Source of the DNA: an uncultured Pseudomonadales bacterium
Lineage (GTDB): Bacteria > Patescibacteriota > Microgenomatia > UBA1400 > PJMF01
DNA length: 64,000 bases
Direction of reading: 5' to 3'
Assembly (NCBI GenBank): GCA_964393205.1
Contig: CAYMSV010000002.1
Location: forward strand, 96,843 to 160,842
The notes below the pieces were generated by a model. It saw only the letters and a program-made list of their open reading frames with translations, did no database searches and had not been told where the DNA came from. Each line of letters starts with the position of its first letter. The first letter of the stretch is position 1. Of this stretch, positions 14,485 through 58,346 are shown one piece after another. The position numbers were made by a program, and so were the translations under genes.

Positions 14485-17425
<2,941 letters not shown>

Positions 17426-17608
17426 AATCATTGAAGTCTTCATTTTATTTCTCGACTATTATTGAATAACAGTTGATAAAATTCTTCACATGTTAAAGAG
17501 CACTTATTACTAGCCACCAATTAGTGACTACTTATTAGCCTCTAGAAGTTCCGCTAGGAAATCATCCAAAGCCTAATAAGTAAACACCAATGTTAATTCA
17601 ACTATAAG

Positions 17609-17685
17609 TGGTGGACCCTAAGGGGCTCGAACCCTTGACCTCCACATTGCAAATGTGGCGCTCTAGCCAACTGAGCTAAGGGCCC
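17609..17685 (-). tRNA. tRNA-Ala (anticodon UGC), CCA encoded
   Basis: The reverse complement is GGGCCCTTAGCTCAGTTGGCTAGAGCGCCACATTTGCAATGTGGAGGTCAAGGGTTCGAGCCCCTTAGGGTCCACCA. It shows a cloverleaf with anticodon loop TTTGCAA (TGC), the G3:U70 Ala identity pair (GGG...CCC stem with G-T) and a T-loop GGTTCGAGCC. Confidence 0.9.
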
Positions 17686-24251: not shown

Positions 24252-24264
24252 TTTTTAATCAAAA

Positions 24265-27951: not shown

Positions 27952-29682
27952 TTATTTATATAAAATAAAATCCCCAATAACTAATATATCAATGCCCGTG
28001 CTATAAAAACAACGTAATGCATCTAAAGGCGTACAAGCTATTGGCTCACCTTTTACATTAAGTGAGGTGTTGATCAAAATTTCATGACCACTTAATTTAG
28101 CAAAGTCTTTGAGCAATTTATGAAAACGAGGATTAGTATTTTTATCTACAACTTGAGGACGTGCTGAACCATCAATGTGAGTAATTGCTGCAATATGTTT
28201 TTGCATTGATTTTTTCACTTGATAAGCAACAATCATGTATTTGCCTTCATCACCAATATTTTCAAAATAACGGCCCGCTTTCTCTTTTGTAACAGAAGGA
28301 CAAAAAGGTCTCCAAGCATCTCGATACTTTACTTGCTGATTAACCAAATCTGGCATTTCTGGATTTAGTGGATTAGCCAAAATAGATCGATTGCCTAGAG
28401 CCCGTGGACCTCCTTCCATTGCTCCTTGGAACCATGCGACAATTTTATTGCCAGCCAAAGCTTTAGCAGTCAATTGACTAATTTTCTCGAAAGGAAGTTT
28501 TTTGTATTTAACTTTTGCATTATCTAACAAATCTTTTATTTCTTGATCATTGTAACTTGGACCCAAATAAACACTTTCTAGAGCTTTTGAACGCTTAGAA
28601 CCAAGCTCTAAACTTGCTAACAAACCAGCACCAATAGCTGCGCCACCGTCATGACTAATTGGCTGCACAAATATTGACTTGAACAAAGCGCTTTCTTTAA
28701 TCCTACCATTCAGCTTAACATTTTGGGCCAAACCTCCAGCTAAACATAGATTGTTTAGATGATATCTTTCTTTCAAATAACTCAAATATTTAAGAACTGT
28801 TTCTTCTAAATGAAATTGTACTGTTCTGGCTAAATCACGATGTTCTTGGGTTATTTCTTCTTTTTTTAGGCGTTGCTCGCCAAACAACTCTATTAAACGA
28901 TCGCTAAAATCCTCATGATAATTATGTCGACCAAGAAGCAAATAGTCTCCTTTAACTTTTATTTGACCATTCTTTATTTCTAAAATATTTTGTATTTTTT
29001 TCAGTAAATCTGGCTGTACCTCTCCATAAGCAGCTAAACCCATTAAAAAGCCCGCTTCACTATAAGGCTGAAACCCTAAAAAAGCAGAAAAGGCTGCATA
29101 AAACCAACCCAAGGAATTAGGTAGTTCTGTTTTACTCAGTTCTTTTAAATTTTTTCCTTGTCCTTCATAAACACTAATTGTGCGTTCTTCACCACTACCA
29201 TCCATGACCAACACTAAAGACTTTTTAAAAGAAGATAAATAAAAAGCACTGGCCGCATGAGACAGGTGATGAGAAAAAAATCTAATCTTATCTTTAATGG
29301 GAGTCTTCTCAATTTGTTTTAAAGCTAAAGCCGTTTTATGTTTAATTAAAGCTGGCTTCCTAGATAAAATACTGAGTAGAAAAGAACTGGATTGATTCCC
29401 TCCCAACAAACTAGGCCAATATTTAAGAGTAGATTTTAAGGAAAACCAGGGTATAAACCACTGATACTTTTGATAGTCCCAACCTATGGCAATTTGGTCT
29501 ACATCAGCTAAATTCAATTTGGTTTTTTTTAAGCAAAACTCAACTGCTTTGATTGGAAAGAAACCATCTGCATTTTTAAAACGAATAAAGCGCTCTTCTT
29601 CAGCATAAACTATAAGCTCTCCATCAATAATAATTGCTGCTGCTGGGTTGTGTTCGAAAATTGATAAGCCTAAAATAATCAT
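27952..29682 (-). CDS. Carbamoyltransferase (NodU/CmcH family)
   Basis: 576 aa. The N-terminus MIILGLSIFEHNPAAAIIIDGELIVYAEEERFIRFK is the Carbam_trans_N ASKHA-like signature, and the C-terminal YrdC-like carbamoyltransferase domain is present. Confidence 0.85.
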   Translation of the reverse strand: MIILGLSIFEHNPAAAIIIDGELIVYAEEERFIRFKNADGFFPIKAVEFCLKKTKLNLADVDQIAIGWDYQKYQWFIPWFSLKSTLKYWPSLLGGNQSSSFLLSILSRKPALIKHKTALALKQIEKTPIKDKIRFFSHHLSHAASAFYLSSFKKSLVLVMDGSGEERTISVYEGQGKNLKELSKTELPNSLGWFYAAFSAFLGFQPYSEAGFLMGLAAYGEVQPDLLKKIQNILEIKNGQIKVKGDYLLLGRHNYHEDFSDRLIELFGEQRLKKEEITQEHRDLARTVQFHLEETVLKYLSYLKERYHLNNLCLAGGLAQNVKLNGRIKESALFKSIFVQPISHDGGAAIGAGLLASLELGSKRSKALESVYLGPSYNDQEIKDLLDNAKVKYKKLPFEKISQLTAKALAGNKIVAWFQGAMEGGPRALGNRSILANPLNPEMPDLVNQQVKYRDAWRPFCPSVTKEKAGRYFENIGDEGKYMIVAYQVKKSMQKHIAAITHIDGSARPQVVDKNTNPRFHKLLKDFAKLSGHEILINTSLNVKGEPIACTPLDALRCFYSTGIDILVIGDFILYK

Positions 29683-30464
29683 AAATAATTAGAAACTTGA
29701 TCGAATTCAAATTCCTCTTCTTTTAAATAAATAATAAAATCTTCTAGATATTGTAAACCACGATTGCTATTTCTTGAATAAATAAAACGCCAAAATAGAT
29801 CAAGATTTTTGCTAGACTGATTGGGAAATAAATCATGAAGATGAAAAACAAAAATCATAGGCCGTTGATTTTTCTTTAAATTACTATTAAGCCGAAAACA
29901 ACGAATAAAATTATTAAAACCCAAAAGTTTTATCCAGCTTAAGGCATTAGGAATACCAAGGGGATCAAGCACTGTAACCGGCAATTCTTTTACATATTTA
30001 TTTTTTAAAAATAAATGTTTTTGAAAAAAATGTCTAGGCATCTGCCATAAACTAGGCAAACAACTAGAATCCAAATTAATTTTGTGTTCTTTTAAAATCT
30101 CTAGATCGCTAATTTTGATTTGGTAAGCCGGAGCTCGATATGCAAGAGGCCTATGTCCAAAAAAATCCTTAAAAGCAACAGTGCCCAATTCTAATTCTTC
30201 GTGAAGATTGTTTTCCGCCTGTTGATGTGAAAAAGAGTGCAAATAAAATTCTGCCCCAAATTTTTTAAATAATTCAATAACCTCTCTATTTTTTCTATTT
30301 AGAGCTTTAGCCACTACAAAAACCGATAAAGTTGCTTGATGTTTTTTTAATAAGTTTAATAAAGATACGATATTCTCTTTTTTCCACATCTGATAATTAG
30401 CCGAAATTAAACCAGCGTGATCAGCTTCCAAATCTAAAGTAAGAATAAAATTTTTTTGCTTCAT
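29679..30464 (-). CDS. Polysaccharide deacetylase (CE4/NodB-like), putative
   Basis: 261 aa. ILTLDLEAD is a metal-binding Asp box. FYLHSFSHQ is an H-S-x-x-H-type motif. The start overlaps the carbamoyltransferase stop (ATGA), indicating translational coupling. Confidence 0.5.
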   Translation of the reverse strand: MKQKNFILTLDLEADHAGLISANYQMWKKENIVSLLNLLKKHQATLSVFVVAKALNRKNREVIELFKKFGAEFYLHSFSHQQAENNLHEELELGTVAFKDFFGHRPLAYRAPAYQIKISDLEILKEHKINLDSSCLPSLWQMPRHFFQKHLFLKNKYVKELPVTVLDPLGIPNALSWIKLLGFNNFIRCFRLNSNLKKNQRPMIFVFHLHDLFPNQSSKNLDLFWRFIYSRNSNRGLQYLEDFIIYLKEEEFEFDQVSNYL

Positions 30465-30494: not shown

Positions 30495-32501
30495 ATGTGT
30501 GGCATATTTGGTTTTGTTAATAACAATCCTATCAATCTACCAAAACGTTCTTTAAAAAAAGAACTAGATAGACTATTTGTCTTGGCTCAATCTAGAGGCA
30601 AAGAAGCTGCTGGTTTAGCTTTAAATAATAAACAAAATATCGCTATTTATAAAGCTCCTCTACCTGCTAAACAACTAATCAAATTAAAAAGCTATCAAAA
30701 TTTTATTGATGAGCAACTAAAAAAAACAATTAATTCAGCTTTGGGACAAGCTAGGTTGGCTACACATGGCTTTCAAGCTAAAAATGACAATAATCAACCA
30801 ACAATAAGCCAAAACTTTGTTGCCGTCCATAATGGAATTATCACCAATCACCAAGAATTATGGTCTAAAAACCATAAAAAAAACTGTCCGGAATCAGACA
30901 CTCAAGTCTTGTTAGATTATTTACAGAAAACTTTTAATAAAAACAATGATTTTATATTCAGCTTACAAAATCTTTATCAAAATATCGAAGGTTCGGCCAG
31001 TCTCATTATAGCTAATAATTTTAATCAAGAAATTTGTATCAGCACTAATACTGGTTCCTTATACTGGATGAACATGCCTGATCTAGGAGCTTATTTTTTT
31101 GCTTCAGAATCATGGATGTTGAAAAATTTTATTAAAAAAGTATATCCAAACCATAATTCAAAAAAAATTAAAATCAAACAACTCAAACCTCAGAAAGCAA
31201 TTATTTTTACGGAAAATAAAAAGAAAAAGCGAATAATAAACTTAAATAAAAAAGTAAAAAATCCCAAACAACAAATAAAAAACAAAGTTGAGATTAGTAG
31301 AAAAATTATTGACAGCTCACCCAATGACATTCCAATGGATCACAGGCTTAATAATCTTTACTCAATTAACAATGATTTTAAAAAGATAAAGAAACATCAT
31401 TTTCCAACAGAAAAAATCAAAAAAATCCACCGCTGTAGTCGCTGTATTCTGCCATCCACTACTCCTTTTATCAGTTTTGATAAAAATGGAGTTTGCAATT
31501 ATTGTCATGACCACAAAAAAATCAGTTATAAAGGTATTAAAGAGCTTAGAAAAATAGTGGCTCCTTTTCGTAAAAAAAATGGTCAAGCAGATTGTTTAAT
31601 TGCCTTCAGTGGTGGAAGAGACAGCTCTTATGGCTTGCACTTTTTAAAAAAAGAATTGGGCATGAATCCCATAGCCTATACTTATGACTGGGGAATGGTT
31701 ACTGATATTGCCCGTCGCAATCAAGCTCGCATAGTCAGTAAGTTGGGAGTTGAACACATTATTATTTCGGCAGATATCACTCAAAAACGTCAACATATTC
31801 AAGAGCATATTAAGGCTTGGTTAAAAAAACCAGAATTGGGGATGGTTCCTCTCTTTATGGAGGGTGACAAACAATGTGAATTTTATGCAGACCAATTAAT
31901 GAAAAAATATGATCTGGAATTAATGTTTTTTTGCAGAGGTAATGAATTTGAAAAAGAAGAGTTTAAGGCTGGACATTGTGGAATTAGAGATGCTGATCCA
32001 GATGGAGTAATCCATCACCTATCTTTAAAAAATAAAATCAGAATAGCTGCTTACTATTTGAGTCAATATATCAAAAATCCGGCCTACATTAATATTTCAC
32101 TGCTAGATACCATGTTGGCGTTCTTTGCCACCTATATTCAAAAACACCAATATCTCTTTCTCTGGCATTACGTTCCTTGGAATGAACAGCAAATTATTAA
32201 AACTTTAAAAAATGAATATAACTGGGAAAGTAGCGACGAAACTCTTAGTACTTGGCGTACAGATGATGGCAGTTCAGCTTTTTATAACTATATTTATTAC
32301 ACTGTTCAAGGTTTTACTGAGAACGACTCTTTTAGATCAAGACAAATCAGAGAAAAATTGATTGATCGTTCCACAGCACTTGAATTAGTTAATGAAGAAA
32401 ATGCTCCAAGATATAAAGCACTTAAATGGTATTTTGATCAGGTAGGACTAGATGGACATAAGGTTTTAACTCAAGTGGATCGAATCAGTAAATTTTATTA
32501 A
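30495..32501 (+). CDS. Glutamine amidotransferase (class II, Ntn) fused to PP-loop N-acetyl-sugar amidotransferase (WbuX/WbpG/PseA-like)
   Basis: 668 aa. N-terminal MCGIFGF carries the class II GATase catalytic Cys2. There is a Cys-rich zinc-ribbon-like segment, CSRCILPSTTPFISFDKNGVCNYC. The PP-loop SGGRDSS lies in the C-terminal half. Confidence 0.65.
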   Translation: MCGIFGFVNNNPINLPKRSLKKELDRLFVLAQSRGKEAAGLALNNKQNIAIYKAPLPAKQLIKLKSYQNFIDEQLKKTINSALGQARLATHGFQAKNDNNQPTISQNFVAVHNGIITNHQELWSKNHKKNCPESDTQVLLDYLQKTFNKNNDFIFSLQNLYQNIEGSASLIIANNFNQEICISTNTGSLYWMNMPDLGAYFFASESWMLKNFIKKVYPNHNSKKIKIKQLKPQKAIIFTENKKKKRIINLNKKVKNPKQQIKNKVEISRKIIDSSPNDIPMDHRLNNLYSINNDFKKIKKHHFPTEKIKKIHRCSRCILPSTTPFISFDKNGVCNYCHDHKKISYKGIKELRKIVAPFRKKNGQADCLIAFSGGRDSSYGLHFLKKELGMNPIAYTYDWGMVTDIARRNQARIVSKLGVEHIIISADITQKRQHIQEHIKAWLKKPELGMVPLFMEGDKQCEFYADQLMKKYDLELMFFCRGNEFEKEEFKAGHCGIRDADPDGVIHHLSLKNKIRIAAYYLSQYIKNPAYINISLLDTMLAFFATYIQKHQYLFLWHYVPWNEQQIIKTLKNEYNWESSDETLSTWRTDDGSSAFYNYIYYTVQGFTENDSFRSRQIREKLIDRSTALELVNEENAPRYKALKWYFDQVGLDGHKVLTQVDRISKFY

Positions 32502-34852
32502 ATTCTTGACAATTCCCAGGTAATTTCGGGAGCTAAAAGCAAAGCGTCTTGTTGATATCGTTCAGCAAGATTTGGCTCGTTTGTCTCTAACTGTCGATAA
32601 AAACGCCACAACTGTTTAGCCAACCTTTCTTTTTCTTCCCACGGCCAAGGCTTATCAGGGTTTTCTATAAAAAAGTGCATAAAATTAGCTATCAACCACT
32701 GTTTTCGCTCCTGATTAATCTTAATATCAGTGCCCAATTCTTTTATTAAAGGACGCATTAAGTCTTGACCAAAATCGTAAAATTTTTTTTGAAATTTACT
32801 TGCTACAAAGCGATCAGCTAAAATCTTAAAATCTGTATAGTTCAAGCTAAAAAATAAGTCAATTAAGACATCTGCATAAAAACGATAAAAAGATTCATAG
32901 TTTTGATAAAATAAGTCTGAATCTAATTGTAGAAATTCTTTTAAAAAATCTGAGTGCTTTGCTTCACCATCAAATTCTAAAAACACCGGTTTATAGCCTT
33001 CAGGTTGCCAAGTATTTAATAGATAATACTGATAGTAAAATTGCCCAGCAAGTTGCAAGTCATCTTTTACAAAAGCCTCATCTGCAAAATTCAACAATAA
33101 TGATCCAATTAATTCTTTATGTTTAATATCAATAGCTAAATTTTTACTTTCCAAATAAATAACCTCTTTGTTTACCCAATGTGAAGTTTTTAATAAGACT
33201 TCGACCCTTTCTTGCCAATCCCAAAGCTCATCCTCCATCAAAAATTCAAAAAAATCAGGTTTAATCACAAATCTTGGATTTATATTTAGAAGTTCTAAAT
33301 AAATTTTCTTTTGTAGATTTTTATCATCAGTATATTCAAAATAGTTTAATAAAAAATTAGCATCATTTCTATAAATATTAAATATAAAATCTTGATTTTC
33401 TTGACTTAAAACATTAATACTTGCTGAATAATCGGGATTCTCCAATAAAGGAAACGTGATAAAAGCTCGATTTGCTGTAGAAAATTCTTTAAATAATTTA
33501 GAAGCAAGATGTGTAAAAGAAATTATAATTAACAAAATACTGCTTATAGAAAAAATCAAACAAGCTATAACTGAGAGGAAAGATCTTGAATAGATGGTCT
33601 TAGCCCTTGATTTCTTAGCGAGAAATAAATTCTGACGAAAAACAATTGCTAAAAAAACTAAAAGTAAAGAAAAAATAGCGCTAAATTGCCAATCAAAATC
33701 AAAGATTGCCATTAAATAAAGAGACAAAATTCCCAACAATAAACCCTGATTTCTTGAAGATGGTTTTTTGACAACTAACATTACACCTGATATTAGCAAA
33801 GCAAAAAAAGACAGAAAATACAAAAAAAATCCTATCAAACCAGTGTCTGTTAAAATTTGTAAAAATTCATTATGAACATATCTAGCAACTGAAATGTCAC
33901 TACTAGCTTGATTGCGAAAAACAAGAACAAAACTATTTAGACCATAACCAATTAGAGGTCTTTGTCTAAAAAAATCTATGGCCTGTTTCCAATATATTAA
34001 TCTGTCATCCTGAGTGATATCCTTGCAAAAATGCTGGAAATTAGAGTCTCTATTCCTACAAAGTTCACTAGGAGCATAATGAAGCTTAAATACAAAAGCA
34101 ATTAAAAAAACCAAGCTTAATAAAAAAAATAAAGACAAGTTTTTGAGAAGTCTCTGCTTAAGTGGATTTAACTTTTTTAGTTTTTGAAAATTTAAAAAAA
34201 CAAGAACCAATAGCTGTAAAACTGCCAAGAAGATAGCGACTCGAGCAAAACTCAAAAGTAAAACAATATAAAAAAATAATAACCAATATAATTCTGAAGT
34301 TTTTTTTATTTCCTTTTCTAGGATAATGTTTTGCCAAAAATAAGGTAAAAATAAAATTAACAAAGTTGCAAAATGGTTATGTCCATAACTGGCATAAAGC
34401 AGATTCATTTTTGGCAGTAAATCTCCTAGACTAGGCACCAACATTAAGAGTAAAACCAGTATTGAAAAAAATTTCATTAAGTTAAAAAATTTCTTAAATA
34501 AAATTCTCTCATCGGGCAATAACTTTTGATCATAAAATAAAAAAACAATCAAACTTAGGAAACCAAGTAACAGAGAAAAATAGCGACTTAAAGATTGGCT
34601 CCAGGCCACTCCTAAATAGGCATTTATGGGGAGATAAAAAAGTAATAATAAAATTGAAAGCAAAGAAATTAATAAAATATTATAAAAAACCGGCTTAGTC
34701 TGCTTTAGCAATTCTATTTGTTTAAAGCTGAGGTGTTTTTTTTGACTTAAATAAAAAAGCGCTAAAATTCCTCCAATACAAAAAATCCATTGAGTTTCCG
34801 CAAATATAATCAAAAAAGATAGTAAAATGACAAATATAGTTGTAAAAACCAT
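32498..34852 (-). CDS. O-antigen ligase/Wzy_C-domain membrane protein with long C-terminal soluble extension
   Basis: 784 aa. Motifs: SYGHNHFATLLILFLPYFW, a Wzy_C-like HNEFLQILTDTGLIGFFLYF block, and an SFARVAIF (SR-type) loop. About 12 TM are followed by a ~330 aa non-membrane C-terminus. It is a paralog of 60625-62796. Confidence 0.55.
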   Translation of the reverse strand: MVFTTIFVILLSFLIIFAETQWIFCIGGILALFYLSQKKHLSFKQIELLKQTKPVFYNILLISLLSILLLLFYLPINAYLGVAWSQSLSRYFSLLLGFLSLIVFLFYDQKLLPDERILFKKFFNLMKFFSILVLLLMLVPSLGDLLPKMNLLYASYGHNHFATLLILFLPYFWQNIILEKEIKKTSELYWLLFFYIVLLLSFARVAIFLAVLQLLVLVFLNFQKLKKLNPLKQRLLKNLSLFFLLSLVFLIAFVFKLHYAPSELCRNRDSNFQHFCKDITQDDRLIYWKQAIDFFRQRPLIGYGLNSFVLVFRNQASSDISVARYVHNEFLQILTDTGLIGFFLYFLSFFALLISGVMLVVKKPSSRNQGLLLGILSLYLMAIFDFDWQFSAIFSLLLVFLAIVFRQNLFLAKKSRAKTIYSRSFLSVIACLIFSISSILLIIISFTHLASKLFKEFSTANRAFITFPLLENPDYSASINVLSQENQDFIFNIYRNDANFLLNYFEYTDDKNLQKKIYLELLNINPRFVIKPDFFEFLMEDELWDWQERVEVLLKTSHWVNKEVIYLESKNLAIDIKHKELIGSLLLNFADEAFVKDDLQLAGQFYYQYYLLNTWQPEGYKPVFLEFDGEAKHSDFLKEFLQLDSDLFYQNYESFYRFYADVLIDLFFSLNYTDFKILADRFVASKFQKKFYDFGQDLMRPLIKELGTDIKINQERKQWLIANFMHFFIENPDKPWPWEEKERLAKQLWRFYRQLETNEPNLAERYQQDALLLAPEITWELSRI

Positions 34853-34884
34853 TGATCTTTGTAATCATAGCAAAAAAAAATAAA

Positions 34885-36003
34885 ATGTCGAAAGCACAAA
34901 TAAAAAATCAAAAGAAGATTCTTCTAATCATTAACAACTATGAATTAAATTCTATTAATAAAATTATTTTGAGCATTATTAAAACTAATCAAAGTTTGCT
35001 CTTTTATGTATTAAGCCTTGAGGATTTTGGTGAATATCAGAGTGATTTTAGTAACAAAAAAAACCTTATTATCATTGATAAAGGTAAAAAGCTTAGACAA
35101 AAAATGATTAAAACGAAGAAAATAATTTTTCAAGAAAAGATTAAACTAATTCACACCCATAGTCTTCGTCCAGAACTCTGCGCCTTTTATTTTAAAATTT
35201 TTTTTCCTAAATTATTTCTAATAAGTAACCGCCATAATCCCCTGTTTCTACACTTTAATATTAAAAGTAGATTACAAAATACAAGTTATCGTTTATTTTC
35301 CAAGTATACCAATCAAAATATTTGTGTGGCCCCTCACATATACAAGACTTTATTAGAAGATTTCAAAATTTCCCAGAAAAAATTATTATTAATAGAAAAT
35401 GCTTTAATTGAAAATAAAGAATCTAAGATTAAAACAAAAAACAAAAAAAGAAAAACAAAACAAATCATCTATTTTGGCCAATTGATTAAAAGAAAAAATA
35501 TAGAAACCCTTATTCTAGCCTGGAAAAAAATCAAAGAAGCTCCACAACTAACAATCATGGGACGAGGTAAAGAATTAAAAAAACTTAAAATCCTAGCCTC
35601 AAAGTGTTCTGCAGAAAACACAAAAACTATTAAATTTTTACCTTTTCATCCCAATCCGGAAAACTTTTATAAAAAAGGAGATATTTTTGTTTTGCCTAGT
35701 TTAAACGAAGGTCTCTCACTGAGTTTACTAGAGTCTATGAAAAGTGCTTTGGTTTGCGTAGCCAGTGATATTCCTGCCAATAAATTTATTATTAAATCTG
35801 GTCGCAATGGCCTACTGTTTAAAGCTGGTTCTGTGAAAAGTTTAAAAAAGCAATTAGTTAAACTAATAAATAAACCTCAACTTTGCAAACAACTAATAAA
35901 ACAAGCCCAAAAAGACGTGGAAGATAATTTTAATAATAAAAAAATGACTCTGTCCTACAAAATTAACTACCAAAAACTTTTCCAGTTAATCGAAAATAGA
36001 TAA
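34885..36003 (+). CDS. Glycosyltransferase family 4 (GT-B fold)
   Basis: GT4 C-terminal signature LPSLNEGLSLSLLESMKSALVCVASD. The track ORF begins at a TTG at 34852; I prefer the in-frame ATG at 34885 (MSKAQIKNQ...). Confidence 0.7.
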   Translation: MSKAQIKNQKKILLIINNYELNSINKIILSIIKTNQSLLFYVLSLEDFGEYQSDFSNKKNLIIIDKGKKLRQKMIKTKKIIFQEKIKLIHTHSLRPELCAFYFKIFFPKLFLISNRHNPLFLHFNIKSRLQNTSYRLFSKYTNQNICVAPHIYKTLLEDFKISQKKLLLIENALIENKESKIKTKNKKRKTKQIIYFGQLIKRKNIETLILAWKKIKEAPQLTIMGRGKELKKLKILASKCSAENTKTIKFLPFHPNPENFYKKGDIFVLPSLNEGLSLSLLESMKSALVCVASDIPANKFIIKSGRNGLLFKAGSVKSLKKQLVKLINKPQLCKQLIKQAQKDVEDNFNNKKMTLSYKINYQKLFQLIENR

Positions 36004-37087
36004 ATTTGAAAGTCTGATCACGAATCGCCTCATAAGTGTTGCAAGAACTATTACAATGTAAACAATCTTTTTTTCTCATTTCCCGACGCTTTTTAAGATT
36101 TCCTGATTCAAAAAATACTTCTGACAAACTTTTATTTAATTTAGCAGTTTTTTGATTAAATACTTGGCCAATAGGTTGACTAGAAAAACACCAATAAAGC
36201 TGACCATAAGCATCTATTACCACACTATCTACTAAGAATGGACAAGGAGTAGTTCGATTAGTTTTTTTACTATACATTGATAAAATATCTGCCCAATAAT
36301 AAGCATTAAAATCTAAAAAATGTTTTGGTTTTGCTAATTTTTTCAAAAATCTATTTAAAAGTGGCCAATCTTGAGAGCGAAAATTAACAAAATCTTCTGT
36401 ATCTAGATTCCGCACATAAGTATCGTGAAAGCCAACAATCTGCCAAGTATATTGATAAGCATGTTTTTTCAACCAATAAGTCAGGTGCTTTACGGTTCTT
36501 AGATTTTGTCGCATCAATAAAACACCTACAAATAAAGACAAACAAGAATATTGTTTTTCTAAATCACGAATTTTTTCTAAACTTAGCTTAACCCGATCAA
36601 ATGCACGACTCACACCACGAATTTTTTGATGACCTTCAGTATAATCATCCAGAGAAACACTAATTATTAAATCTATTCCTTTTTCTTGACATAGTTTCAC
36701 TATCTTTTCTAATTCTTTAAAACCAGATTTACTTATAAATCCATTAGTAACTAATGAAATTTTTTTTAATTTGGGTAAATTATTTATAAACAAGGATAAA
36801 ATGGCAAAAAATTCAGGATGAAGTAATGCTTCGCCTCCAGTCAAATCTAAACTACGTAAGTTACTTAAAAAAGGATCTTTGACTAAAACTCTCCACTCTT
36901 TCAAAGACAGCTCTCTAAGTTTAGGCATTTGCCAAATATTACACATGATGCAACGAGAATTACACTGATAGGTAAGGGCTAATAATAATTTTCGAGGTTT
37001 TAATTTAAAAAACTTACCAAAAAAAATATAAAAATAATAAAGAGTAAAACTTTTTAAAAAATTGCTAAATCTTTTTAATTGAGACAT
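35963..37087 (-). CDS. Radical SAM enzyme with C-terminal SPASM/twitch-like Cys cluster
   Basis: 374 aa. The CNSRCIMC stretch is a Cx3Cx2C radical SAM cluster. The downstream GGEALL segment is a SAM-binding motif. C-terminal cysteines (CPFLVDS...YWCF...CLHCNSSC) look like an auxiliary-cluster domain. Confidence 0.7.
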   Translation of the reverse strand: MSQLKRFSNFLKSFTLYYFYIFFGKFFKLKPRKLLLALTYQCNSRCIMCNIWQMPKLRELSLKEWRVLVKDPFLSNLRSLDLTGGEALLHPEFFAILSLFINNLPKLKKISLVTNGFISKSGFKELEKIVKLCQEKGIDLIISVSLDDYTEGHQKIRGVSRAFDRVKLSLEKIRDLEKQYSCLSLFVGVLLMRQNLRTVKHLTYWLKKHAYQYTWQIVGFHDTYVRNLDTEDFVNFRSQDWPLLNRFLKKLAKPKHFLDFNAYYWADILSMYSKKTNRTTPCPFLVDSVVIDAYGQLYWCFSSQPIGQVFNQKTAKLNKSLSEVFFESGNLKKRREMRKKDCLHCNSSCNTYEAIRDQTFKFIYFRLTGKVFGS

Positions 37088-38214
37088 AGACCTAAAATTT
37101 CAAAATACTTTTCCAAATTAGTAACATTATAATCTTTTTTTACCCTACGTTGACCAAACAAAGCTAATTTTTTTCTTAAAGAATCGTTTTTAAGCAATAA
37201 CATAATTTTATCGCTCATATCTTTGATCGAATAGGCAATTAAACCTGCTTCTTGGTTATGAAAATAAAGTTTAAGCCCAGGATAATTCATCACTACTGCT
37301 GGTAAAGCGGTGCTCCAAGCCTCTAACAAAACTACCGGCTGCCCCTCATATTTGGAACTAAGAACAAAAATCTTTGATTGAGCATAAAAACTAGCAACAT
37401 CACGATTTGGCTTAGCAAATCTGACGTTTTTAACTAATTTATTACTTTTAACATACTTTTTTAATGACTGCTCTTCTTTACCCTCACCCACCATTAATAA
37501 ACTAATATCTTTTTTATTCTTCTTTAATTCTTTAACTACTTTGATTAAGGTTAGTAAGTTTTTTTGCGGCGCAAAACGACCAATAAAAAGCAAATCAAAT
37601 ATTTTTTTATCAGCTTTTTTTGCTTTGGATTTAGAATTTTTCTTTGTATTTTTAAAATTTGTTACCACCCAATTAGGAACCACAAAAATTTTGTCAGCTG
37701 ATATATTTAAATAATCAATTAAATCCTGTTTAGCTACTTGATTTTGAACAATGATCGCTTTAGCAGCTGGATAAAAGATTTTTCCCAAAACTTTTTGATA
37801 AAACCGCGGATTCTCATATGAAAAGATATTGTCTTGGCTAATAAAAACCTCAATTTTTTTCCAAAAAAATAATTTACTCAAAAAAATACTTCTAACTGAA
37901 GAGTGTAAAACATGACTTAAGATCAAATTAATATCAAATCTAAGAATATTAATGCCCCAGTGAATAAAACTGGGCAAATAAAATGTTTTTCCAAGTACTC
38001 TTAGTGCCTTGGGTCTAATAAGTTGCTTAAATTGTGGATCTAATTGGTCAAGAAAGTCAAAATCTGCCTCAGCAGTGTATAGTAAGTAGGGCTCAATCCT
38101 CTCACTTAGTTCATTTTGATAAATATAGTTAATCAAATCAACAATTTTACGCTGAATACCTCCAAGACCCATATTGTAAAATATGAAAGCTAATTTAACT
38201 TTTTTGTGAGACAT
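37075..38214 (-). CDS. Glycosyltransferase family 4 (GT-B fold)
   Basis: 379 aa with the GT4 EX7E-type signature VLSSKYEGQPVVLLEAWSTALPAVVMN. It overlaps the radical SAM gene start. Confidence 0.75.
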   Translation of the reverse strand: MSHKKVKLAFIFYNMGLGGIQRKIVDLINYIYQNELSERIEPYLLYTAEADFDFLDQLDPQFKQLIRPKALRVLGKTFYLPSFIHWGINILRFDINLILSHVLHSSVRSIFLSKLFFWKKIEVFISQDNIFSYENPRFYQKVLGKIFYPAAKAIIVQNQVAKQDLIDYLNISADKIFVVPNWVVTNFKNTKKNSKSKAKKADKKIFDLLFIGRFAPQKNLLTLIKVVKELKKNKKDISLLMVGEGKEEQSLKKYVKSNKLVKNVRFAKPNRDVASFYAQSKIFVLSSKYEGQPVVLLEAWSTALPAVVMNYPGLKLYFHNQEAGLIAYSIKDMSDKIMLLLKNDSLRKKLALFGQRRVKKDYNVTNLEKYFEILGLCLN

Positions 38215-38219
38215 AATTA

Positions 38220-39059
38220 CTACTCAGGAAAAGTGTAATCAAGCACTGTGCCGAATAAAAACACACTTTCAGTGTCATTATAAAAGTAATCATTAACCAT
38301 AAGAGGGCGTCGATAACTATAAAAACAGTTGTTAGTGTTTTCTTTGAGACACCAAACCCTAAGGGAAATATTAAAATAAACGTCAGAGTGTAGCGGGTCA
38401 TAAGCAACTACTTTTCTACCCCTACTATCTAATTCTGAACTTTTGGCTGGCTCATATTTAAAACTATTAAATTTTAATATGTCTTGATTGCTGTAGTCCT
38501 CAAGAAATAAACGATGAAAATATTTAATCACTACATTTTCAATTTCAGGGATTTTAACATCAACTAAAGCAATTCTCTCTACAAATTTACTCATCCTATC
38601 TTCAACATTTTGGTAAACATCAATAATCTCTCCCTCAAAGAAATATTTTTCGGTAGTAAAATCAAAATTTTTACCCACTACCAGGGGTTTTCCCAAATAA
38701 GAGTAAGTTCTTTTTCTCTTATCATAAAGTGCTTCTATTTCTAAAGTTAAATAGACATCAAATTTTTGATCACCTCCAAAAGAAACCTTATCAATAAATA
38801 CCACCTCGGCAATTTTATCACCAGCAAAATTATAAATTTCATCTCCAACTGCCATTTGTAAAAATTGCCATTTTTCTATAGGCATTATTACTCCAAAATC
38901 TTGATCACTCACCAACATATCTATATGAATAGTTTGTTTCTCTCGATCAAAATAAAAAATAGCAAACACCAAAGCTAATAAGGCCATTAAAGCTAGTAGA
39001 TAATCAACTATTGATAGTTGTTTAAAAAATTTAATAATTTTTCTCTTGTATTTTTGCAT
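38220..39059 (-). CDS. Bitopic membrane protein (hypothetical)
   Basis: 279 aa with an N-terminal TM (IVDYLLALMALLALVFAIFYF) and a soluble domain in which I recognise no motif. Confidence 0.4.
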   Translation of the reverse strand: MQKYKRKIIKFFKQLSIVDYLLALMALLALVFAIFYFDREKQTIHIDMLVSDQDFGVIMPIEKWQFLQMAVGDEIYNFAGDKIAEVVFIDKVSFGGDQKFDVYLTLEIEALYDKRKRTYSYLGKPLVVGKNFDFTTEKYFFEGEIIDVYQNVEDRMSKFVERIALVDVKIPEIENVVIKYFHRLFLEDYSNQDILKFNSFKYEPAKSSELDSRGRKVVAYDPLHSDVYFNISLRVWCLKENTNNCFYSYRRPLMVNDYFYNDTESVFLFGTVLDYTFPE

Positions 39060-40578
39060 AAGCCATTCCTATTATAATCCAAAAAAAAGCTGTAATTTGA
39101 AACTCATATAACCAAGGATAAAACTGGGCTACTAAAATGTAATTAAAAGCAGCTAACAATAAGGCTAAAAGCTCCACATCCTGCCTCTTTTTTCTTCGTT
39201 CCTTAAAAAAATATTTTGCAAAGACTAAAATTAGCCCAATAAAAACCATTAAACCAAAGGCACCAATAGCATTAAGAACTTCAAATAACAAATTGTGAAC
39301 AGATGCTGGATTTCTAAAAAAAAGATCTGGTGGAAAATCATGAATAATTGAATATTTAAAAACATTATGACCTAAACCCAATGGTTTTTGCATCATATAA
39401 ACCCAAGACATTTCAAATTGTCTAATACGAGACAAGATAGTACTGTGATTAAAATTCCTAAAAAGATTTAAAAAATGTTCACTTAAGAAACGAGACGAAA
39501 AACCAAACGTAATAATCATGATGATTATTAAAATGAATAAAAAATTTCTAGAAAAAATAAATTTAAATTTATTTTTTTTAAGAGACTTTTTGACATATTT
39601 TTTCATTAAAGGTAATAAAAACAAAAAATTAAATAAGAGAACTAACCACACGCCTCTACTCAAACTTAAAATAATACCAGCTATCGAAGCAATAATAGTA
39701 AAAAAAAGCAACTTTCGGTCAACAACATTGTGATTCTTTAAATAAAGAAAAGAAGCTAAACTGCCAAAAAACATCAAGATTGAAGAACTTAAATTAGCAT
39801 CCCAAAATAAACCACCAGGACGATAAAATTCTGGATTATCAGTAGAAAAACGAGCTGGTAATCCCGTATCAACAACCATGCCCAAATTGCCACCACTAAT
39901 TTTTTGCAAAAACATAGTGACACCACCAATGATAGCGTAAATAAAGAGTGTTTCTAAAACTATTCGGCGAATTTTTACATCTTTAGAAAAAATGAATGAT
40001 AAATAAAAAAGTAATAAATACTTAAAGAAAATCCATAAATAAAACCAGGCAAATAAACTTATGTCAGTAAAAAAAGTAGCTATTAGTGAACTAATAAATA
40101 GTAAAAATATTAAAAAATCAATAATTCCTGGTTTCCAAAATTTATTTTTAAAATTGGTTCTAGTTTTTAATAGATAAATTAATATAAATATCAAAGGATC
40201 AAAAAAAGCCAGATATAGATGGGGATTAAACAGGTCTGTTTTAAATTTGGCTAAAGAACTATCCAATATGCTATAAAAATAATTTCCATAATAATTAATC
40301 TCAAAATGATAAGCCTTTTTAAAAAAAATCAGAAAAAAAATCATCAACCAAAGCGTTTTGTTTAAATCTTGTTTTAACAGATATAATATGATTAAGCTAA
40401 GAGCTAATAAAAGTAAATAAAATAGTATGCGATCTATCAAAACATTAGCTAATAAGAAAAAAAGGAAAAAATATGTTTCTTTTTGCAGCTTTGGCCAAAA
40501 AGAAATCGCTTTAAAAATGATTTTGCTGAAAAAAGATCTTGATTGAGATAAAAAATTTATGCTTAGAGATAAACTCAT
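39031..40578 (-). CDS. Wzy/O-antigen polymerase-ligase-like polytopic membrane protein
   Basis: 515 aa with more than 10 TM helices and an SRG-containing loop (IILSLSRGVWLVLLF) as in Wzy_C proteins. The N-terminal start assignment is uncertain because it overlaps the divergent gene at 40559-40578. Confidence 0.4.
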   Translation of the reverse strand: MSLSLSINFLSQSRSFFSKIIFKAISFWPKLQKETYFFLFFLLANVLIDRILFYLLLLALSLIILYLLKQDLNKTLWLMIFFLIFFKKAYHFEINYYGNYFYSILDSSLAKFKTDLFNPHLYLAFFDPLIFILIYLLKTRTNFKNKFWKPGIIDFLIFLLFISSLIATFFTDISLFAWFYLWIFFKYLLLFYLSFIFSKDVKIRRIVLETLFIYAIIGGVTMFLQKISGGNLGMVVDTGLPARFSTDNPEFYRPGGLFWDANLSSSILMFFGSLASFLYLKNHNVVDRKLLFFTIIASIAGIILSLSRGVWLVLLFNFLFLLPLMKKYVKKSLKKNKFKFIFSRNFLFILIIIMIITFGFSSRFLSEHFLNLFRNFNHSTILSRIRQFEMSWVYMMQKPLGLGHNVFKYSIIHDFPPDLFFRNPASVHNLLFEVLNAIGAFGLMVFIGLILVFAKYFFKERRKKRQDVELLALLLAAFNYILVAQFYPWLYEFQITAFFWIIIGMAYAKIQEKNY

Positions 40579-41725
40579 TGTTTTATTATTGTATCAGCCG
40601 TGGCAATGGTCTACTGATTATCAAAACCAGACAGTAAAAACTTTAGAAAAACTTAATAACAAAGTCATTATTTATTATGGACATAAAGAAACAGTCTTGT
40701 GGAAAAAAGACGGATTACAATCACTTTTTATTAAGAAAAATAAAAAATTAAACTTCTTCATTCCAATTCATTTTTTGCCTTTACGCCGACTAACTTTTGT
40801 AAAAAAAGCTAATCAATTCATAAACCTTCAAAGATTTAATCATTATTGCAAAAACTTATTTAGAAAATACGAGAAAAAAATAACTCCTTCTCAAGCTATT
40901 TTCTGGTTTTTTGAACCAAACTCCTTGATTCAAAACCTTCATTTATTAGATATCAAACACAAACATTTAATTTTTGACTGTGTAGATTACTTTTCAATAA
41001 AAGAATTAAAGTTTGCACTGCAAAAAAGCACTAGTATTTTTTGTATTTCACAAACCATGCAGGAGTTACTGAGTAAACTAATCAAATCTAAAAAAATAAT
41101 AAATTTGGTACCTCAAGGATTTGATCTAAACACTTTTAAAAAATATAAATTGTTCATCAATACTACTTCTTCTAAAGATAAAAGATATAAAATTGGTTTT
41201 ATCGGAGGAATTGATAATCGACTCAAATATTCACTGTTAATCAATCTAGTCAAAAGCAACCCTCAGTGGCAGTTTCTTTTTTATGGACCTCAGCAAAAAC
41301 TAAGCAAAAAAAACAAAAAACTACTAAACAAACTTCAAGCTTTCTCCAATACCGACTGGGGAAATGTGACAAAAAAAGAATTACCTAGAATTATTCATAG
41401 TTTCGATGTCGGTATTATTCCCTATGAGATCAGACAAAAGAAAAATTACTACTGTTATCCAATGAAAATTTTTGAATATTTTTATCTAGGAAAACCCGTG
41501 GTGAGCACTCCTATAGCAGAACTGCAGCATAAAAGGTTTAGCAATTTTGTTAGAATAGCTAAAGACAGTCATCAATTCGAAAATTCAATTAAAAAATTGT
41601 TATCTAAAAGCTGGTCAATTTCCTTAAAAAAACAACAAAGACAAATGGCCATAATTAATTCTTGGCAAAAAAAAATTAACACAATAAATGATCAACTAAA
41701 ACTGTTCGTAAAACAAAAAAAATGA
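40559..41725 (+). CDS. Glycosyltransferase (GT-B, GT1/GT4-like C-terminal domain), putative
   Basis: 388 aa. The C-terminal half (IGFIGGIDNRL...DVGIIPY...KIFEYFYLGKPVVSTP) resembles a GT-B donor-binding domain. Confidence 0.45.
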   Translation: MLRDKLIVLLLYQPWQWSTDYQNQTVKTLEKLNNKVIIYYGHKETVLWKKDGLQSLFIKKNKKLNFFIPIHFLPLRRLTFVKKANQFINLQRFNHYCKNLFRKYEKKITPSQAIFWFFEPNSLIQNLHLLDIKHKHLIFDCVDYFSIKELKFALQKSTSIFCISQTMQELLSKLIKSKKIINLVPQGFDLNTFKKYKLFINTTSSKDKRYKIGFIGGIDNRLKYSLLINLVKSNPQWQFLFYGPQQKLSKKNKKLLNKLQAFSNTDWGNVTKKELPRIIHSFDVGIIPYEIRQKKNYYCYPMKIFEYFYLGKPVVSTPIAELQHKRFSNFVRIAKDSHQFENSIKKLLSKSWSISLKKQQRQMAIINSWQKKINTINDQLKLFVKQKK

Positions 41726-54986: not shown

Positions 54987-54988
54987 TA

Positions 54989-55834
54989 ATGACACAATCA
55001 TCAATTAAAAAAATCTATCATCAATCCAAATTTAATCTGGGTTTCAAAAGAAACTTAGAAAAATATTTCGGTTTTGAAACTTTTTTGAAAAACCAATACA
55101 ACAAAAGTAAGTTCTTTTTTGATAATAAAATTATTTACCCCGTATTTGCAAAAATTAGTCATTATTTATATCAACAAGTTATTGATTATTACGGAGCTGA
55201 TTATAGGTGGAACGATCAAAAAAGCCAAAATATAGATAAAAAAACCAATAATTATGGCTATGGTCTCTTTCATTACTCAATGATTAGAAATCAAAAACCA
55301 AAGCGTGTTTTATGTATCGGTTCAATGTACGGGTATATTCCCTACATGATGGCTAAAGCCTGCCAAGATAATAATTTTGGTAGCATTGATTTTGTTGACG
55401 CTAATTATAATCTTAAAGATGATGAGAATAATCAGAATCATTATTTTGGAGAAGGTTTCTGGAATAAAGACCGCGTAGCAAATCATTTTAATTATTTATT
55501 GAATCAAAAATTCATAAACACCTACGTCATGCGCACTGATCAATTTGCTCATAAATATTCAAGTAGAAAATACGATTATGTTTGCTTAGACGGGGATCAT
55601 TCATACAAAGGAGTAAAAACAGATTTTAAGCTATTTTGGCCAAAAATTAAGAAGAATGGCTTTCTTTGTTTACATGATATTGATCTTGTAGTTGACCCTA
55701 AAAATCCAGATTTTATGAATTTAGAGTTCAACTATAAAAAATTTTGGGAAGAATTAGTAGCAAAAAAGAGTTTTCAATATAAATTTGAAATCTCTAATCA
55801 ATATTCAGGCCTAGGTTTTATTCAAAAAAAATAA
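54989..55834 (+). CDS. Class I SAM-dependent methyltransferase (Methyltransf_24 / CmcI-TylF-like)
   Basis: 281 aa with VLCIGSMYGY and DYVCLDGDHSYKGVKTDFKLFWPKIKKNGFLCLHDI. These are typical of the cephalosporin hydroxylase / macrocin O-MTase-like family. Confidence 0.55.
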   Translation: MTQSSIKKIYHQSKFNLGFKRNLEKYFGFETFLKNQYNKSKFFFDNKIIYPVFAKISHYLYQQVIDYYGADYRWNDQKSQNIDKKTNNYGYGLFHYSMIRNQKPKRVLCIGSMYGYIPYMMAKACQDNNFGSIDFVDANYNLKDDENNQNHYFGEGFWNKDRVANHFNYLLNQKFINTYVMRTDQFAHKYSSRKYDYVCLDGDHSYKGVKTDFKLFWPKIKKNGFLCLHDIDLVVDPKNPDFMNLEFNYKKFWEELVAKKSFQYKFEISNQYSGLGFIQKK

Positions 55835-55839
55835 TTTAT

Positions 55840-56802: not shown

Positions 56803-56911
56803 CGGCTTTCATCTTAATCTAAAGACTCCTGCTTTTCAAGAAAAAAGAAACATCATAACGATCGTTGACAACTCCTAATAATTGAGTCTAGAATAATAAA
56901 GAGATAAAAAT

Positions 56912-56989
56912 ATGAAAAAATATACAAAACCAAGCCTGAAAAAAAGCAAAATCAAGATAAACTTTGCTTTTACTATTGTCAAAACATAA
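56912..56989 (+). CDS. Small ORF (25 aa), candidate precursor/leader peptide
   Basis: ATG at 56912 with AAAGAG 8 nt upstream. It translates to MKKYTKPSLKKSKIKINFAFTIVKT* and ends 22 nt before the PqqD-like gene on the same strand. It is not in the ORF track. Confidence 0.25.
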   Translation: MKKYTKPSLKKSKIKINFAFTIVKT

Positions 56990-57011: not shown

Positions 57012-57320
57012 ATGTTTAATTCTGAAAAACTGTTTTCTAGTTTTGTTTTTTGTCGCTCAAGTGTTAATTTTAGCAAAAAAAAAGATACTTTCTTAGTTTT
57101 ATCTCAAGACCGCAAACACATTCTGGAACTTAAAGATGTATCTTTTAGTATTTGGCAAAATTTAGAAAAACCAATCTCTTTTTCTGCATTGATAAAGAAA
57201 CTCCAAAAGGAGTATGACGTGGCAGAAGAAGTTTTAGAAAAAGATTTAAAATCTTGGTTAAAAGAAGCTTTAAAAGAAAAGATTATTAAAAAAGTAAAAT
57301 TAAACAACCTTAATCATTAA
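57012..57320 (+). CDS. PqqD-like protein (RiPP recognition element family)
   Basis: 102 aa. The stretch FLVLSQDRKHILELKDVSFSIWQNLEKPISFSALIKKLQKEYDVAEEVLEKDLKSWLKEALKEKII follows the PqqD pattern (l.l.....g..y.LN.tg..iW.ll.g..t..ei...l...Y.v......Dv..fl..L...gli). Confidence 0.55.
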   Translation: MFNSEKLFSSFVFCRSSVNFSKKKDTFLVLSQDRKHILELKDVSFSIWQNLEKPISFSALIKKLQKEYDVAEEVLEKDLKSWLKEALKEKIIKKVKLNNLNH

Positions 57321-58343: not shown

Positions 58344-58346
58344 TTA

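Follow-up and report, generated by a model that had tools for sequence, protein, structure and literature searches.

A twitch-domain radical SAM protein among glycosyltransferase and Wzy_C genes as a candidate glycan-modifying enzyme

To our knowledge, the radical SAM enzymes characterised as acting on carbohydrates come mostly from antibiotic pathways, for example BtrN and BlsE, and the surface chemistry of Patescibacteria has hardly been described. Within our incomplete coverage of the literature, no description was found of a carbohydrate-acting radical SAM enzyme inside a Wzx/Wzy-type surface-glycan pathway, and a search for work linking radical SAM enzymes to pyruvyl transferases, capsule or O-antigen, Patescibacteria or DUF4330 returned nothing relevant. 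Two related auxiliary domains serve as the points of reference for the C-terminus of the protein described here. [quoted passage not shown] When a twitch cluster is fully ligated, it serves as the electron acceptor in a two-electron oxidation, and the auxiliary cluster of MoaA is held by three cysteines and has an open site at which the substrate is bound (PMC9012708).

The window, by which we mean the whole 64,000-nucleotide stretch of DNA analysed, encodes a 374-aa protein that belongs to the radical SAM superfamily, as judged from its partial TIM-barrel fold and from its match to Pfam Radical_SAM (PF04055, E 2.5e-13, 51 bits against a gathering threshold of 29.5). The AF2 model is of high quality (pLDDT 93.8, pTM 0.91), and a fold search with it yielded 66 matches in the PDB at E<=0.001, of which the best 50 are all radical SAM enzymes. 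The CX3CX2C motif reported in the first-pass annotation was recovered as C42/C46/C49 and is invariant in 83/83 aligned relatives; the GGE motif (G84-G85-E86) is likewise invariant. An NCBIfam scan of the protein and 10 relatives found no family at or above its cut-off, and the N_Twi_rSAM subfamily model NF033640 reached 45.4 bits against a cut-off of 170, over the core region only. Seventy-three homologs pass E<=1e-3 and the best of them reaches 1e-245, and conservation of the ORF is therefore far beyond chance. The family is broad: a threshold of E<=1e-30 admits 49 representative clusters and one of E<=1e-10 admits 1,486. The pattern [RQK]C[IV]MCNIW retrieved 346 related loci. A tblastn search of the PLSDB plasmids gave no match.

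Table 1. Positions of the radical SAM gene, its parts and its neighbours in the window, with the PqqD-like ORF.
Feature	Position	Strand	Basis
Second Wzy_C-domain protein, 784 aa	32498..34852	-	Wzy_C E 2.5e-19; kept in L001/L002
Convergent GT4	34852..36003	+	Glycos_transf_1 E 1.8e-33; 41-nt 3'-3' overlap with radical SAM gene
Radical SAM/twitch-domain enzyme gene	35963..37087	-	ATG start, 374 aa; PF04055 51 bits, 73 homologs, AF2 model
Predicted twitch-type auxiliary-cluster domain, residues ~270-350	36038..36280	-	C282-X12-G295-X4-C300, beta-hairpin; helix, then C342-X2-C345
CX3CX2C codons (C42, C46, C49)	36941..36964	-	Within family signature C-[IV]-M-C-N-I-W
Upstream GT4	37075..38214	-	Glycos_transf_1 E 2.3e-32; 13-nt overlap with start of radical SAM gene
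p279, DUF4330-like, N-terminal TM helix and beta-rich domain	38220..39059	-	Weak DUF4330 match
Wzy_C-domain membrane protein, 515 aa: polymerase, ligase or O-OTase type	39031..40578	-	Wzy_C E 2.5e-13
GT1/GT4-like glycosyltransferase	40559..41725	+	Glyco_trans_1_4 E 6.7e-9
PqqD-like ORF	57012..57320	+	Pfam PqqD E 5.6e-11; 19.9 kb from start of radical SAM gene

The gene is tightly packed among its neighbours (Table 1), and from position 32498 to 41725 successive genes either overlap or stand 5 nt apart. Reading the junction directly places the TAA stop of the upstream GT4 within the first codons of the radical SAM gene, and the overlap with a GT4 claimed earlier was thus borne out, as was the minus-strand run of Wzy_C, hypothetical (here DUF4330-like), GT4 and radical SAM genes. 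The second GT4, convergent on the radical SAM gene, adds to the earlier description of the locus. For the DUF4330-like protein (p279), a homolog search returned only 4 close relatives; its AF2 model, built from this shallow alignment, is unreliable (pLDDT 61, pTM 0.48, the other four models being near 30).

The earlier observation of C-terminal cysteine clusters typical of SPASM/twitch domains held for twitch and not for a full SPASM. The layout is C282-X12-G295-X4-C300 ... C342-X2-C345-X3-C349, and of these cysteines only the first four are invariant across the family. Non-conservation of the C-terminal cysteines, which the first-pass annotation had named as evidence against its reading, was not seen: 83/83 relatives keep C282, C300, C342 and C345, and G295 is invariant across all clades. 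C349 is clade-specific, being present in 24/25 members of the ortholog clade and in 8/32 more distant relatives; the sister clade has Tyr at this position. DSSP assignment of the AF2 model gives a hairpin (E288-291/E296-298) and a helix (328-337), with C282 and C300 flanking the predicted hairpin and C342 and C345 following the helix, a topology that agrees with the published description of twitch (PMC6231123). When the SPASM profile was run, TIGR04085 scored 17.5 bits, below its cut-off of 27, and covered only model positions 4-65 of 93. No match of the protein to PF13186 was reported at E<=1, and some homologs carry weak precomputed matches to it. The seven-cysteine SPASM motif is absent; the invariant part is CX12GX4C ... 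CX2C, the fifth cysteine (CX2CX3C) is confined to certain clades, and the distal cysteine is lacking. As the second SPASM half (CX2CX5CX3C ... C) is missing, no second auxiliary cluster is expected. A profile built from just the C-terminal domain had BtrN as its sole PDB match, with all four cysteines aligned. Judged from its sequence and predicted structure, the domain is of the one-cluster twitch type (half-SPASM) and not a seven-cysteine SPASM, and its auxiliary [4Fe-4S] cluster would be fully ligated by C282/C300/C342/C345, as in BtrN.

The glycan setting extends to the homologs. In context counts made on metagenome-assembled contigs with simple ORF calling, a GT4 lies within one gene of the radical SAM gene in 19/24 ortholog loci and within two genes in 22/24, and a convergent GT4 overlaps its 3' end in 9/24. 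Among 93 flanking genes there were 33 GT4, 14 Wzy_C, 8 GT2 and 6 DUF4330 genes and 3 flippases; the 25 most frequent families listed for these genes include neither PqqD nor any other peptide-associated family. Homologs of p279 were found by tblastn in L001-L007 and in 12/20 ortholog loci, mostly directly adjoining the radical SAM gene and themselves adjoined by Wzy_C homologs; p279 is the most specific recurring partner of the enzyme. Glycan context is kept down to 32% identity and in a nanoarchaeal homolog, and the most distant relatives sharing the motif have mixed, non-glycan contexts.

A sister clade, placed beside the clade of the window's enzyme in a neighbour-joining tree that carries no support values, has a polysaccharide pyruvyl transferase directly downstream in 19 loci and fused to the radical SAM protein in 5. 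Ten multi-domain relatives were sampled, and they comprised seven fusions to PS_pyruv_trans and one GT4-radical SAM fusion (P0186). In the cultured Psychromonas ossibalaenae, the gene order is Wzx flippase, radical SAM, pyruvyl transferase, GT4. A pyruvyl-transferase HMM matched neither the window nor the ortholog loci, and the partnership of the sister clade is therefore not directly transferable to the window's enzyme. Pyruvyl transferase and GT4 act on saccharides, and their fusion to the radical SAM protein argues for a sugar target.

Since the enzyme is found with genes of sugar-chain assembly, a glycan rather than a peptide is its likely target. A role in a glycan pathway is very probable, and the most likely function is modification of a cell-surface glycan, not of a peptide. 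The protein probably represents a group of radical SAM enzymes with a twitch domain, as yet uncharacterised, that are dedicated to building glycans in Wzx/Wzy-type polysaccharide or glycoconjugate loci, and we favour the carbohydrate itself as the substrate. The suggestion of a sugar-modifying enzyme, one of two offered in the first-pass annotation, thus gains support from genomic context and fusions. As to the chemistry, dehydrogenation or epimerisation is proposed tentatively. As the sequence shows, C42/C46/C49 and the GGE motif form the SAM-binding [4Fe-4S] site, where cleavage of SAM would yield a 5'-deoxyadenosyl radical that takes a hydrogen atom from a sugar C-H. Context and fusions suggest that the substrate may be a nucleotide-activated or polyprenyl-diphosphate-linked glycan intermediate made by the flanking GT4s. 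The auxiliary [4Fe-4S] cluster predicted from the four cysteines would accept the electron of the substrate radical, giving a keto-sugar by two-electron oxidation, or an epimer if the hydrogen atom were given back. The modified unit would presumably pass to the neighbouring Wzy_C protein and the DUF4330-like partner. More speculatively, and on balance somewhat doubtfully, the enzyme and its sister clade could form an unrecognised widespread family performing radical chemistry directly on lipid-linked repeat units with an obligate GT-B-fold partner (GT4 or pyruvyl transferase), sometimes fused, and introducing a sugar modification new to surface polysaccharides, for instance one in which a keto, pyruvyl or enol-pyruvyl group is transformed by radical chemistry.

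Four other readings were weighed. If a sugar is the substrate, the radical chemistry might be of another kind, such as BlsE-like decarboxylation, C-C bond formation or addition of 5'-deoxyadenosyl to an enol-pyruvyl group. The last of these would account for the link of the sister clade to pyruvyl transferase, seen as adjacency and as fusion; BlsE is the top fold match, and the Cys/Tyr at position 349 might serve as a radical or hydrogen-atom relay. We nonetheless consider such chemistry unlikely, as the NCBIfam model for BlsE (TIGR04466) has a cut-off of 400 bits and reached only 26.5, the HMM detected no pyruvyl transferase either in the window or at the ortholog loci, and a fully ligated auxiliary cluster is a better fit to oxidation (PMC9012708). 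It is quite unlikely that the enzyme modifies the lipid part, i.e. a polyprenyl carrier or lipid anchor, instead of the sugar. The glycan substrates at this locus are expected to be lipid-linked, the N-terminal helix (residues 3-24) is hydrophobic and aromatic, and there are weak matches of the radical SAM core to the lipid-modifying GDGT-MAS (7tol) and, in relatives, to HpnH. However, these matches involve the generic core only, the hydrophobic character of the helix is not kept in most homologs, and the fusions to a saccharide-acting pyruvyl transferase or GT4 favour a sugar over a lipid.

A peptidic target could be envisaged in two ways. Wzy_C proteins can be protein O-oligosaccharyltransferases, and anSME is not known to have an RRE. 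These two points are the grounds for picturing an RRE-less, anSME-like protein maturase whose target, instead of the sugar, would be a residue in a glycoprotein acceptor or in one of the enzymes of the glycan pathway, and anSME is indeed among the top fold matches. This is improbable, in that anSME-type models fall far under their cut-offs on this protein and anSME itself has a full two-cluster SPASM (PMC6231123). Moreover, the 93 flanking genes include neither a sulfatase nor any other family of known clients, and the fusion partners are pyruvyl transferase and GT4, with no client protein. The first-pass annotation had also raised the possibility that the enzyme is the peptide SPASM partner of a PqqD-like gene about 20 kb away. 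That gene does exist in the window (Table 1), in a 56-59 kb cassette with the order QueC-like gene, PqqD, ABC ATPase, ABC-2 permease and without a radical SAM gene. With only some 30 residues ahead of its radical SAM core, the enzyme has no RRE, and the close packing of the genes between 32.5 and 41.7 kb leaves no room for a precursor-peptide gene. Co-occurrence, which had been suggested as a check, was not seen: a narrow PqqD HMM found 0/89 radical SAM loci (+-10 kb, nothing at E<1), and three PqqD-homolog loci retain their own QueC-like/ABC-2 synteny with no such enzyme within 10 kb. A RiPP or peptide maturase relying on the stand-alone PqqD-like protein for peptide recognition is thus highly improbable, even with the sactisynthase SkfB as the top full-length PDB profile match and weak matches to several NCBIfam peptide-maturase models, for the SkfB match begins at its residue 103, past the RRE, the PqqD-like family is small (11 homologs) and that of the enzyme far broader, the flanking genes are glycan genes, and the auxiliary domain scores below the SPASM cut-off. 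The peptide/PqqD reading is largely refuted, and a cysteine-rich C-terminus with a distant PqqD gene is insufficient ground for calling a RiPP system.

The favoured reading, a twitch enzyme of glycan assembly, concerns a family that is easily recognised. C[IV]MCNIW with a four-cysteine twitch domain is a clear signature, the partnership with GT4, Wzy_C and pyruvyl-transferase genes is tight and conserved, and a member is present in cultured P. ossibalaenae. Signature, genomic partnership and cultured hosts together make the family a testable entry to unknown sugar modifications in the envelopes of archaea and of bacteria, Patescibacteria among them.

Lastly, we compared the enzyme with characterised systems. 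The first-pass annotation had set a peptide link against closest relatives acting on nucleotide sugars, and the answer is divided: the full-length profile points to a peptide enzyme (SkfB), and the fold (BlsE) and the C-terminal domain (BtrN) to sugar/cyclitol enzymes. Fold matches to sugar and to peptide enzymes have similar TM-scores (0.50-0.60). SkfB, the sporulation killing factor sactisynthase (6EFN; E 1.3e-28), shares a core plus twitch architecture and a single auxiliary cluster, which is predicted in our enzyme. However, it has an N-terminal RRE for its precursor peptide where our enzyme has none, a coordination position is left open at its CX33CXC auxiliary site (PMC6231123), as opposed to the four invariant cysteines here, and its genomic context is wholly unlike that found here. 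The authors of the SkfB study caution that function in this subgroup is not predicted by similarity of sequence (PMC6231123). BlsE (cytosylglucuronate decarboxylase, a nucleoside-sugar enzyme; 7VOB), the top Foldseek match (E 5.9e-12, TM 0.60/0.67), acts on a sugar moiety, as proposed here, but identity is 16% and the profile match is limited to the core, positions 28-207; one review of decarboxylation did not mention BlsE. The SPASM maturases anSME, PqqE, CteB and SuiB share the superfamily fold, and the first half-motif CX9-15GX4C is present in our enzyme, which differs from them in lacking the second half-motif, in scoring below the TIGR04085 cut-off and in having no peptide partner. Two specific roles were rejected. 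A cofactor role like that of MoaA (GTP 3',8-cyclase) is at odds with the TIGR02666 score (45.5 bits against 284), the four invariant cysteines and the context, and an anSME role with the lack of both a SPASM and a client protein. BtrN, the 2-deoxy-scyllo-inosamine dehydrogenase of butirosin (PDB 4M7T/4M7S), belongs to an aminoglycoside gene cluster and not to a Wzy/GT4 glycan locus, and is shorter (~270 aa against 374); our enzyme contains a further helical insert of ~90 residues (at residues ~228-274) as well as a helix at its N-terminus, and detectable similarity is limited to the C-terminal domain (E 0.006). Both proteins nevertheless combine a radical SAM core with a twitch domain and have no RRE, the four auxiliary-cluster cysteines and the hairpin glycine align, and the substrate of BtrN is carbohydrate-like, as we propose for the enzyme described here.

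The radical SAM gene (rSAM) is a real, conserved gene. Its placement in the first-pass annotation, at 35963..37087 on the minus strand, was borne out, with an ATG start and a product of 374 aa that matches Pfam Radical_SAM (E 2.5e-13, 51 bits; cut-off 29.5). A collection of 5.8 billion proteins yielded 73 homologs of approximately 23% to 97% identity, most of them labelled Patescibacteria. The canonical Cx3Cx2C motif claimed for the gene was confirmed as C42/C46/C49, the predicted site of the radical SAM cluster judging from sequence, and the GGE motif (G84-G85-E86) is invariant in the family. The reported overlap with an upstream GT4 gene also held: read directly at the junction, this GT4 stops within the first rSAM codons. 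Features of the window and of the homolog loci are listed in the table.

Coordinates of features in the window and in loci containing rSAM orthologs
Feature	Location	Coordinates	Strand	Remark
5S rRNA	window	14278-14393	-	
23S rRNA	window	14510-17422	-	
tRNA	window	17612-17685	-	
Two GDSL-like proteins	window	23232-25317		
WecG/TagA transferase	window	25563-26318		
Carbamoyltransferase	window	27952-29682		
Polysaccharide deacetylase	window	29679-30464		
AsnB-like amidotransferase	window	30495-32501		
Wzy_C protein	window	32498-34852		
Second GT4	window	34852..36003	+	convergent on rSAM, 41-nt 3'-3' overlap
Upstream GT4	window	37075..38214	-	overlaps rSAM start by 13 nt
DUF4330-like protein p279 (279 aa)	window	38220..39059	-	upstream of GT4 37075..38214
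Wzy_C protein	window	39031..40578	-	upstream of GT4 37075..38214
PQQ_2/DUF5060 protein	window	41722-44622		
PQQ_2/DUF5060 protein	L001	2473-5370		
PQQ_2/DUF5060 protein	L003	14592-17441		
PQQ_2/DUF5060 protein	L011	~10461-13199		
ABC-2 transporter pair	window	50174-51702		
ABC-2 transporter pair	window	57300-59141		
Wzy_C protein	window	60625-62796		
Further radical SAM gene	L004	1613-2836		
Further radical SAM genes	L005	1914-2903, 4920-5993		
Further radical SAM genes	L007	203-1756, 4641-5633, 17532-18530		

Genomic context is the decisive evidence on rSAM. In each of six homolog loci (91% to 32% identity) it lies among Wzy_C and GT4/GT2 genes and a homolog of p279, of approximately 279 aa. 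Scanning 185,579 species genomes for the family motif [RQK]C[IV]MCNIW gave 346 related loci, and 80 of these were retrieved; the ortholog set, i.e. the clade of the window rSAM itself, comprises 24 non-redundant loci of 30-45% identity. A GT4 gene directly adjoins rSAM in 19 of these 24 loci and lies no more than two genes away in 22, and nine share with the window a convergent GT4 that overlaps rSAM at its 3′ end. The 93 genes flanking the orthologs include 33 GT4, 14 Wzy_C, 8 GT2, 6 DUF4330, 3 Wzx-type flippase and 3 Alg13/14-like genes, and PqqD, peptidases and other peptide-associated families are absent from the 25 most frequent families listed for them. Among the 20 ortholog loci that came from the species-genome scan, p279 homologs were found in 12 and homologs of the Methyltransf_24 gene at 54989..55834 in 10. 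The neighbours of a nanoarchaeal homolog (28% identity) are GT4, GT2 and UDP-GlcNAc 2-epimerase genes. We regard a role for rSAM in a glycan pathway as very probable.

The window clade is monophyletic (25/25) on a neighbour-joining tree without support values, and its sister on that tree, at 24-30% identity, includes Bacteroidota, Campylobacterota, Psychromonas and others. In 19 loci of this sister clade rSAM is followed by a co-directional polysaccharide pyruvyl transferase gene (PF04230), and in five (L059, L062, L073, L079, L086) the two are fused; in cultured Psychromonas ossibalaenae a Wzx flippase gene precedes rSAM, and pyruvyl transferase and GT4 genes come after it in that order. When 1.84 billion representatives were searched exhaustively, 49 clusters matched at E<=1e-30 and 1,486 did so at E<=1e-10; proteins of 710-800 aa are frequent among the best matches. 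Ten multi-domain matches were scanned: seven are rSAM-PS_pyruv_trans fusions (P0133, P0143, P0144, P0162, P0207, P0209, P0222) and an eighth, P0186, joins a GT4 to rSAM, mirroring in a single protein the overlapping GT4/rSAM pair in the window. We found neither architecture described in the literature searched. As the fusion partners work on saccharide acceptors, these fusions are the strongest indication that rSAM takes the same glycan intermediates as substrates. Since contexts are heterogeneous among the most distant motif-sharing relatives, this inference is confined to the ortholog and sister clades.

The C-terminal Cys clusters had been described as typical of SPASM/twitch domains. C282, G295, C300, C342 and C345 are invariant, both in a 39-sequence alignment and in 83 sequences covering all related clades; the four Cys thus stood, but their pattern, CX12GX4C ... 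CX2C(X3C), is that of twitch and not SPASM. Residue 349 (codon 36041-36043), three residues past the end of the CX2C ligand pair, is Cys in 24/25 of the window clade and Tyr in 24/26 of the sister clade, and in 32 more distant relatives of the 83-sequence alignment is Cys in 8 and mostly Gly otherwise. Both Cys and Tyr are classical H-atom or radical relay residues. SPASM domains hold two clusters on a seven-Cys motif, CX9-15GX4C-gap-CX2CX5CX3C-gap-C, and twitch is a truncated SPASM with one (PMC6231123). Full ligation of the BtrN twitch cluster comes from four Cys: one on either side of the beta-hairpin and a pair that follows helix alpha2' (PMC6231123). An AlphaFold model of rSAM built on a 65-sequence alignment (pLDDT 93.8, pTM 0.91) places strands 288-291 and 296-298 between C282 and C300 and helix 328-337 ahead of C342/C345, a predicted topology that is exactly of the BtrN type. 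A profile restricted to the C-terminal domain had BtrN as its single match in the whole PDB (E 0.006), with the four Cys and the Gly of the hairpin all aligned. The profile check suggested earlier, TIGR04085 (SPASM), scored 17.5 bits (cut-off 27) and covered only model positions 4-65 of 93; no NCBIfam family reached its cut-off for rSAM or ten relatives. The domain is a twitch, not a SPASM, and its four invariant Cys are predicted to ligate an auxiliary cluster fully.

Comparison with solved structures was less discriminating. The full-length profile matched SkfB best (E 1.3e-28), beginning at SkfB residue 103, past its peptide-recognition domain (RRE), with CteB, MoaA, BlsE and BtrN next. Foldseek placed BlsE first (E 5.9e-12, TM 0.60/0.67), followed by CteB, SkfB, anSME, SuiB, EpeE, viperin and MoaA at similar TM-scores. 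The SkfB paper warns against reading function from similarity in this subgroup (PMC6231123), and these relatives do not decide the rSAM substrate. The comparison does show the architecture, a radical SAM core plus twitch without an RRE; only ~30 residues, predicted to form a single helix, precede the core.

The PqqD-like gene proposed as a partner does exist (57012..57320, plus strand; Pfam PqqD E 5.6e-11), 19.9 kb from rSAM. Its family is very small (11 homologs, 54-100% identity), and its synteny (window 53739-59141) is kept in three homolog loci (L090-L092, 60-71% identity), with Methyltransf_24, (PLP decarboxylase) and a QueC-like PP-loop protein before it and an ABC ATPase whose C-terminal domain is S24-like, then an ABC-2 permease, after it. 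The gene therefore has its own conserved partners. In these three loci no radical SAM gene lies within 10 kb of it and tblastn with the window rSAM found no match. Conversely, the PqqD-family HMM matched only the window and these three loci; the 89 rSAM loci gave no match at E<1, in agreement with tblastn. Within ±10 kb flanks and with this narrow HMM, the two genes do not co-occur (0/89 and 0/3), and the partnership suggested in the first-pass annotation was not upheld. Nor is its peptide-enzyme reading supported, given the lack of an RRE, the glycan-gene neighbours and the PqqD-like gene that does not co-travel. The PqqD-like protein, a stand-alone RRE, adjoins a PP-loop ATPase; its JGI name, 'uracil DNA glycosylase', looks like a mis-annotation.

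The other reading offered, a sugar-modifying enzyme, gains support from genomic context. The substrate is somewhat more plausibly a carbohydrate than anything else. In such a reaction the 5'-deoxyadenosyl radical would take hydrogen from a sugar, presumably a nucleotide-activated or polyprenyl-PP-linked intermediate supplied by the flanking GT4s, and the auxiliary cluster could then accept an electron from the substrate radical, a step proposed for BtrN (PMC9012708). That would yield a keto-sugar or, should hydrogen be returned, an epimer, and the Wzy_C protein with p279 might then polymerise or transfer the modified unit. We propose dehydrogenation or epimerisation only tentatively. Alternatives are a decarboxylation like that of BlsE, first among the Foldseek matches, and chemistry on a pyruvyl or enol-pyruvyl group, the pyruvyl transferase being the partner in the sister clade. 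A lipid is an alternative target, as is a protein.

Several further features were observed. The glycan region of the window (20186-62796) is unusually large. In several ortholog loci a protein of ~950-970 aa with a PQQ_2-type beta-propeller and DUF5060 lies close to the rSAM module, a few genes away. The glycan regions of L004, L005 and L007 are rich in radical enzymes: the additional radical SAM genes there adjoin ATP-grasp, QueC-like and Methyltransf_24 genes; some encode B12-binding domains, and one is a paralog of the rSAM family at 27% identity. Window GC is ~25-37% outside the 23S/5S rRNA region; with most homologs labelled Patescibacteria, this makes a Patescibacteria (CPR) genome the probable source. 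No 16S rRNA lies beside the 23S/5S/tRNA genes at 14278-17685, where a 779-aa ORF is the next upstream feature, and the rRNA genes therefore appear unlinked. The closest-relative MAGs (L010, L019, L024, L025) are labelled 'uncultured Pseudomonadales' or 'Gammaproteobacteria'; these labels may be unreliable, since both the gene content of the MAGs and the GC of the window (~30%) are Patescibacteria-like.

The rSAM family belongs to a known kind, the twitch radical SAM enzymes. We found no curated family model, solved structure or paper for it, nor, in the literature searched, any description of its dedicated partnership with the GT-B enzymes of Wzx/Wzy-type loci.
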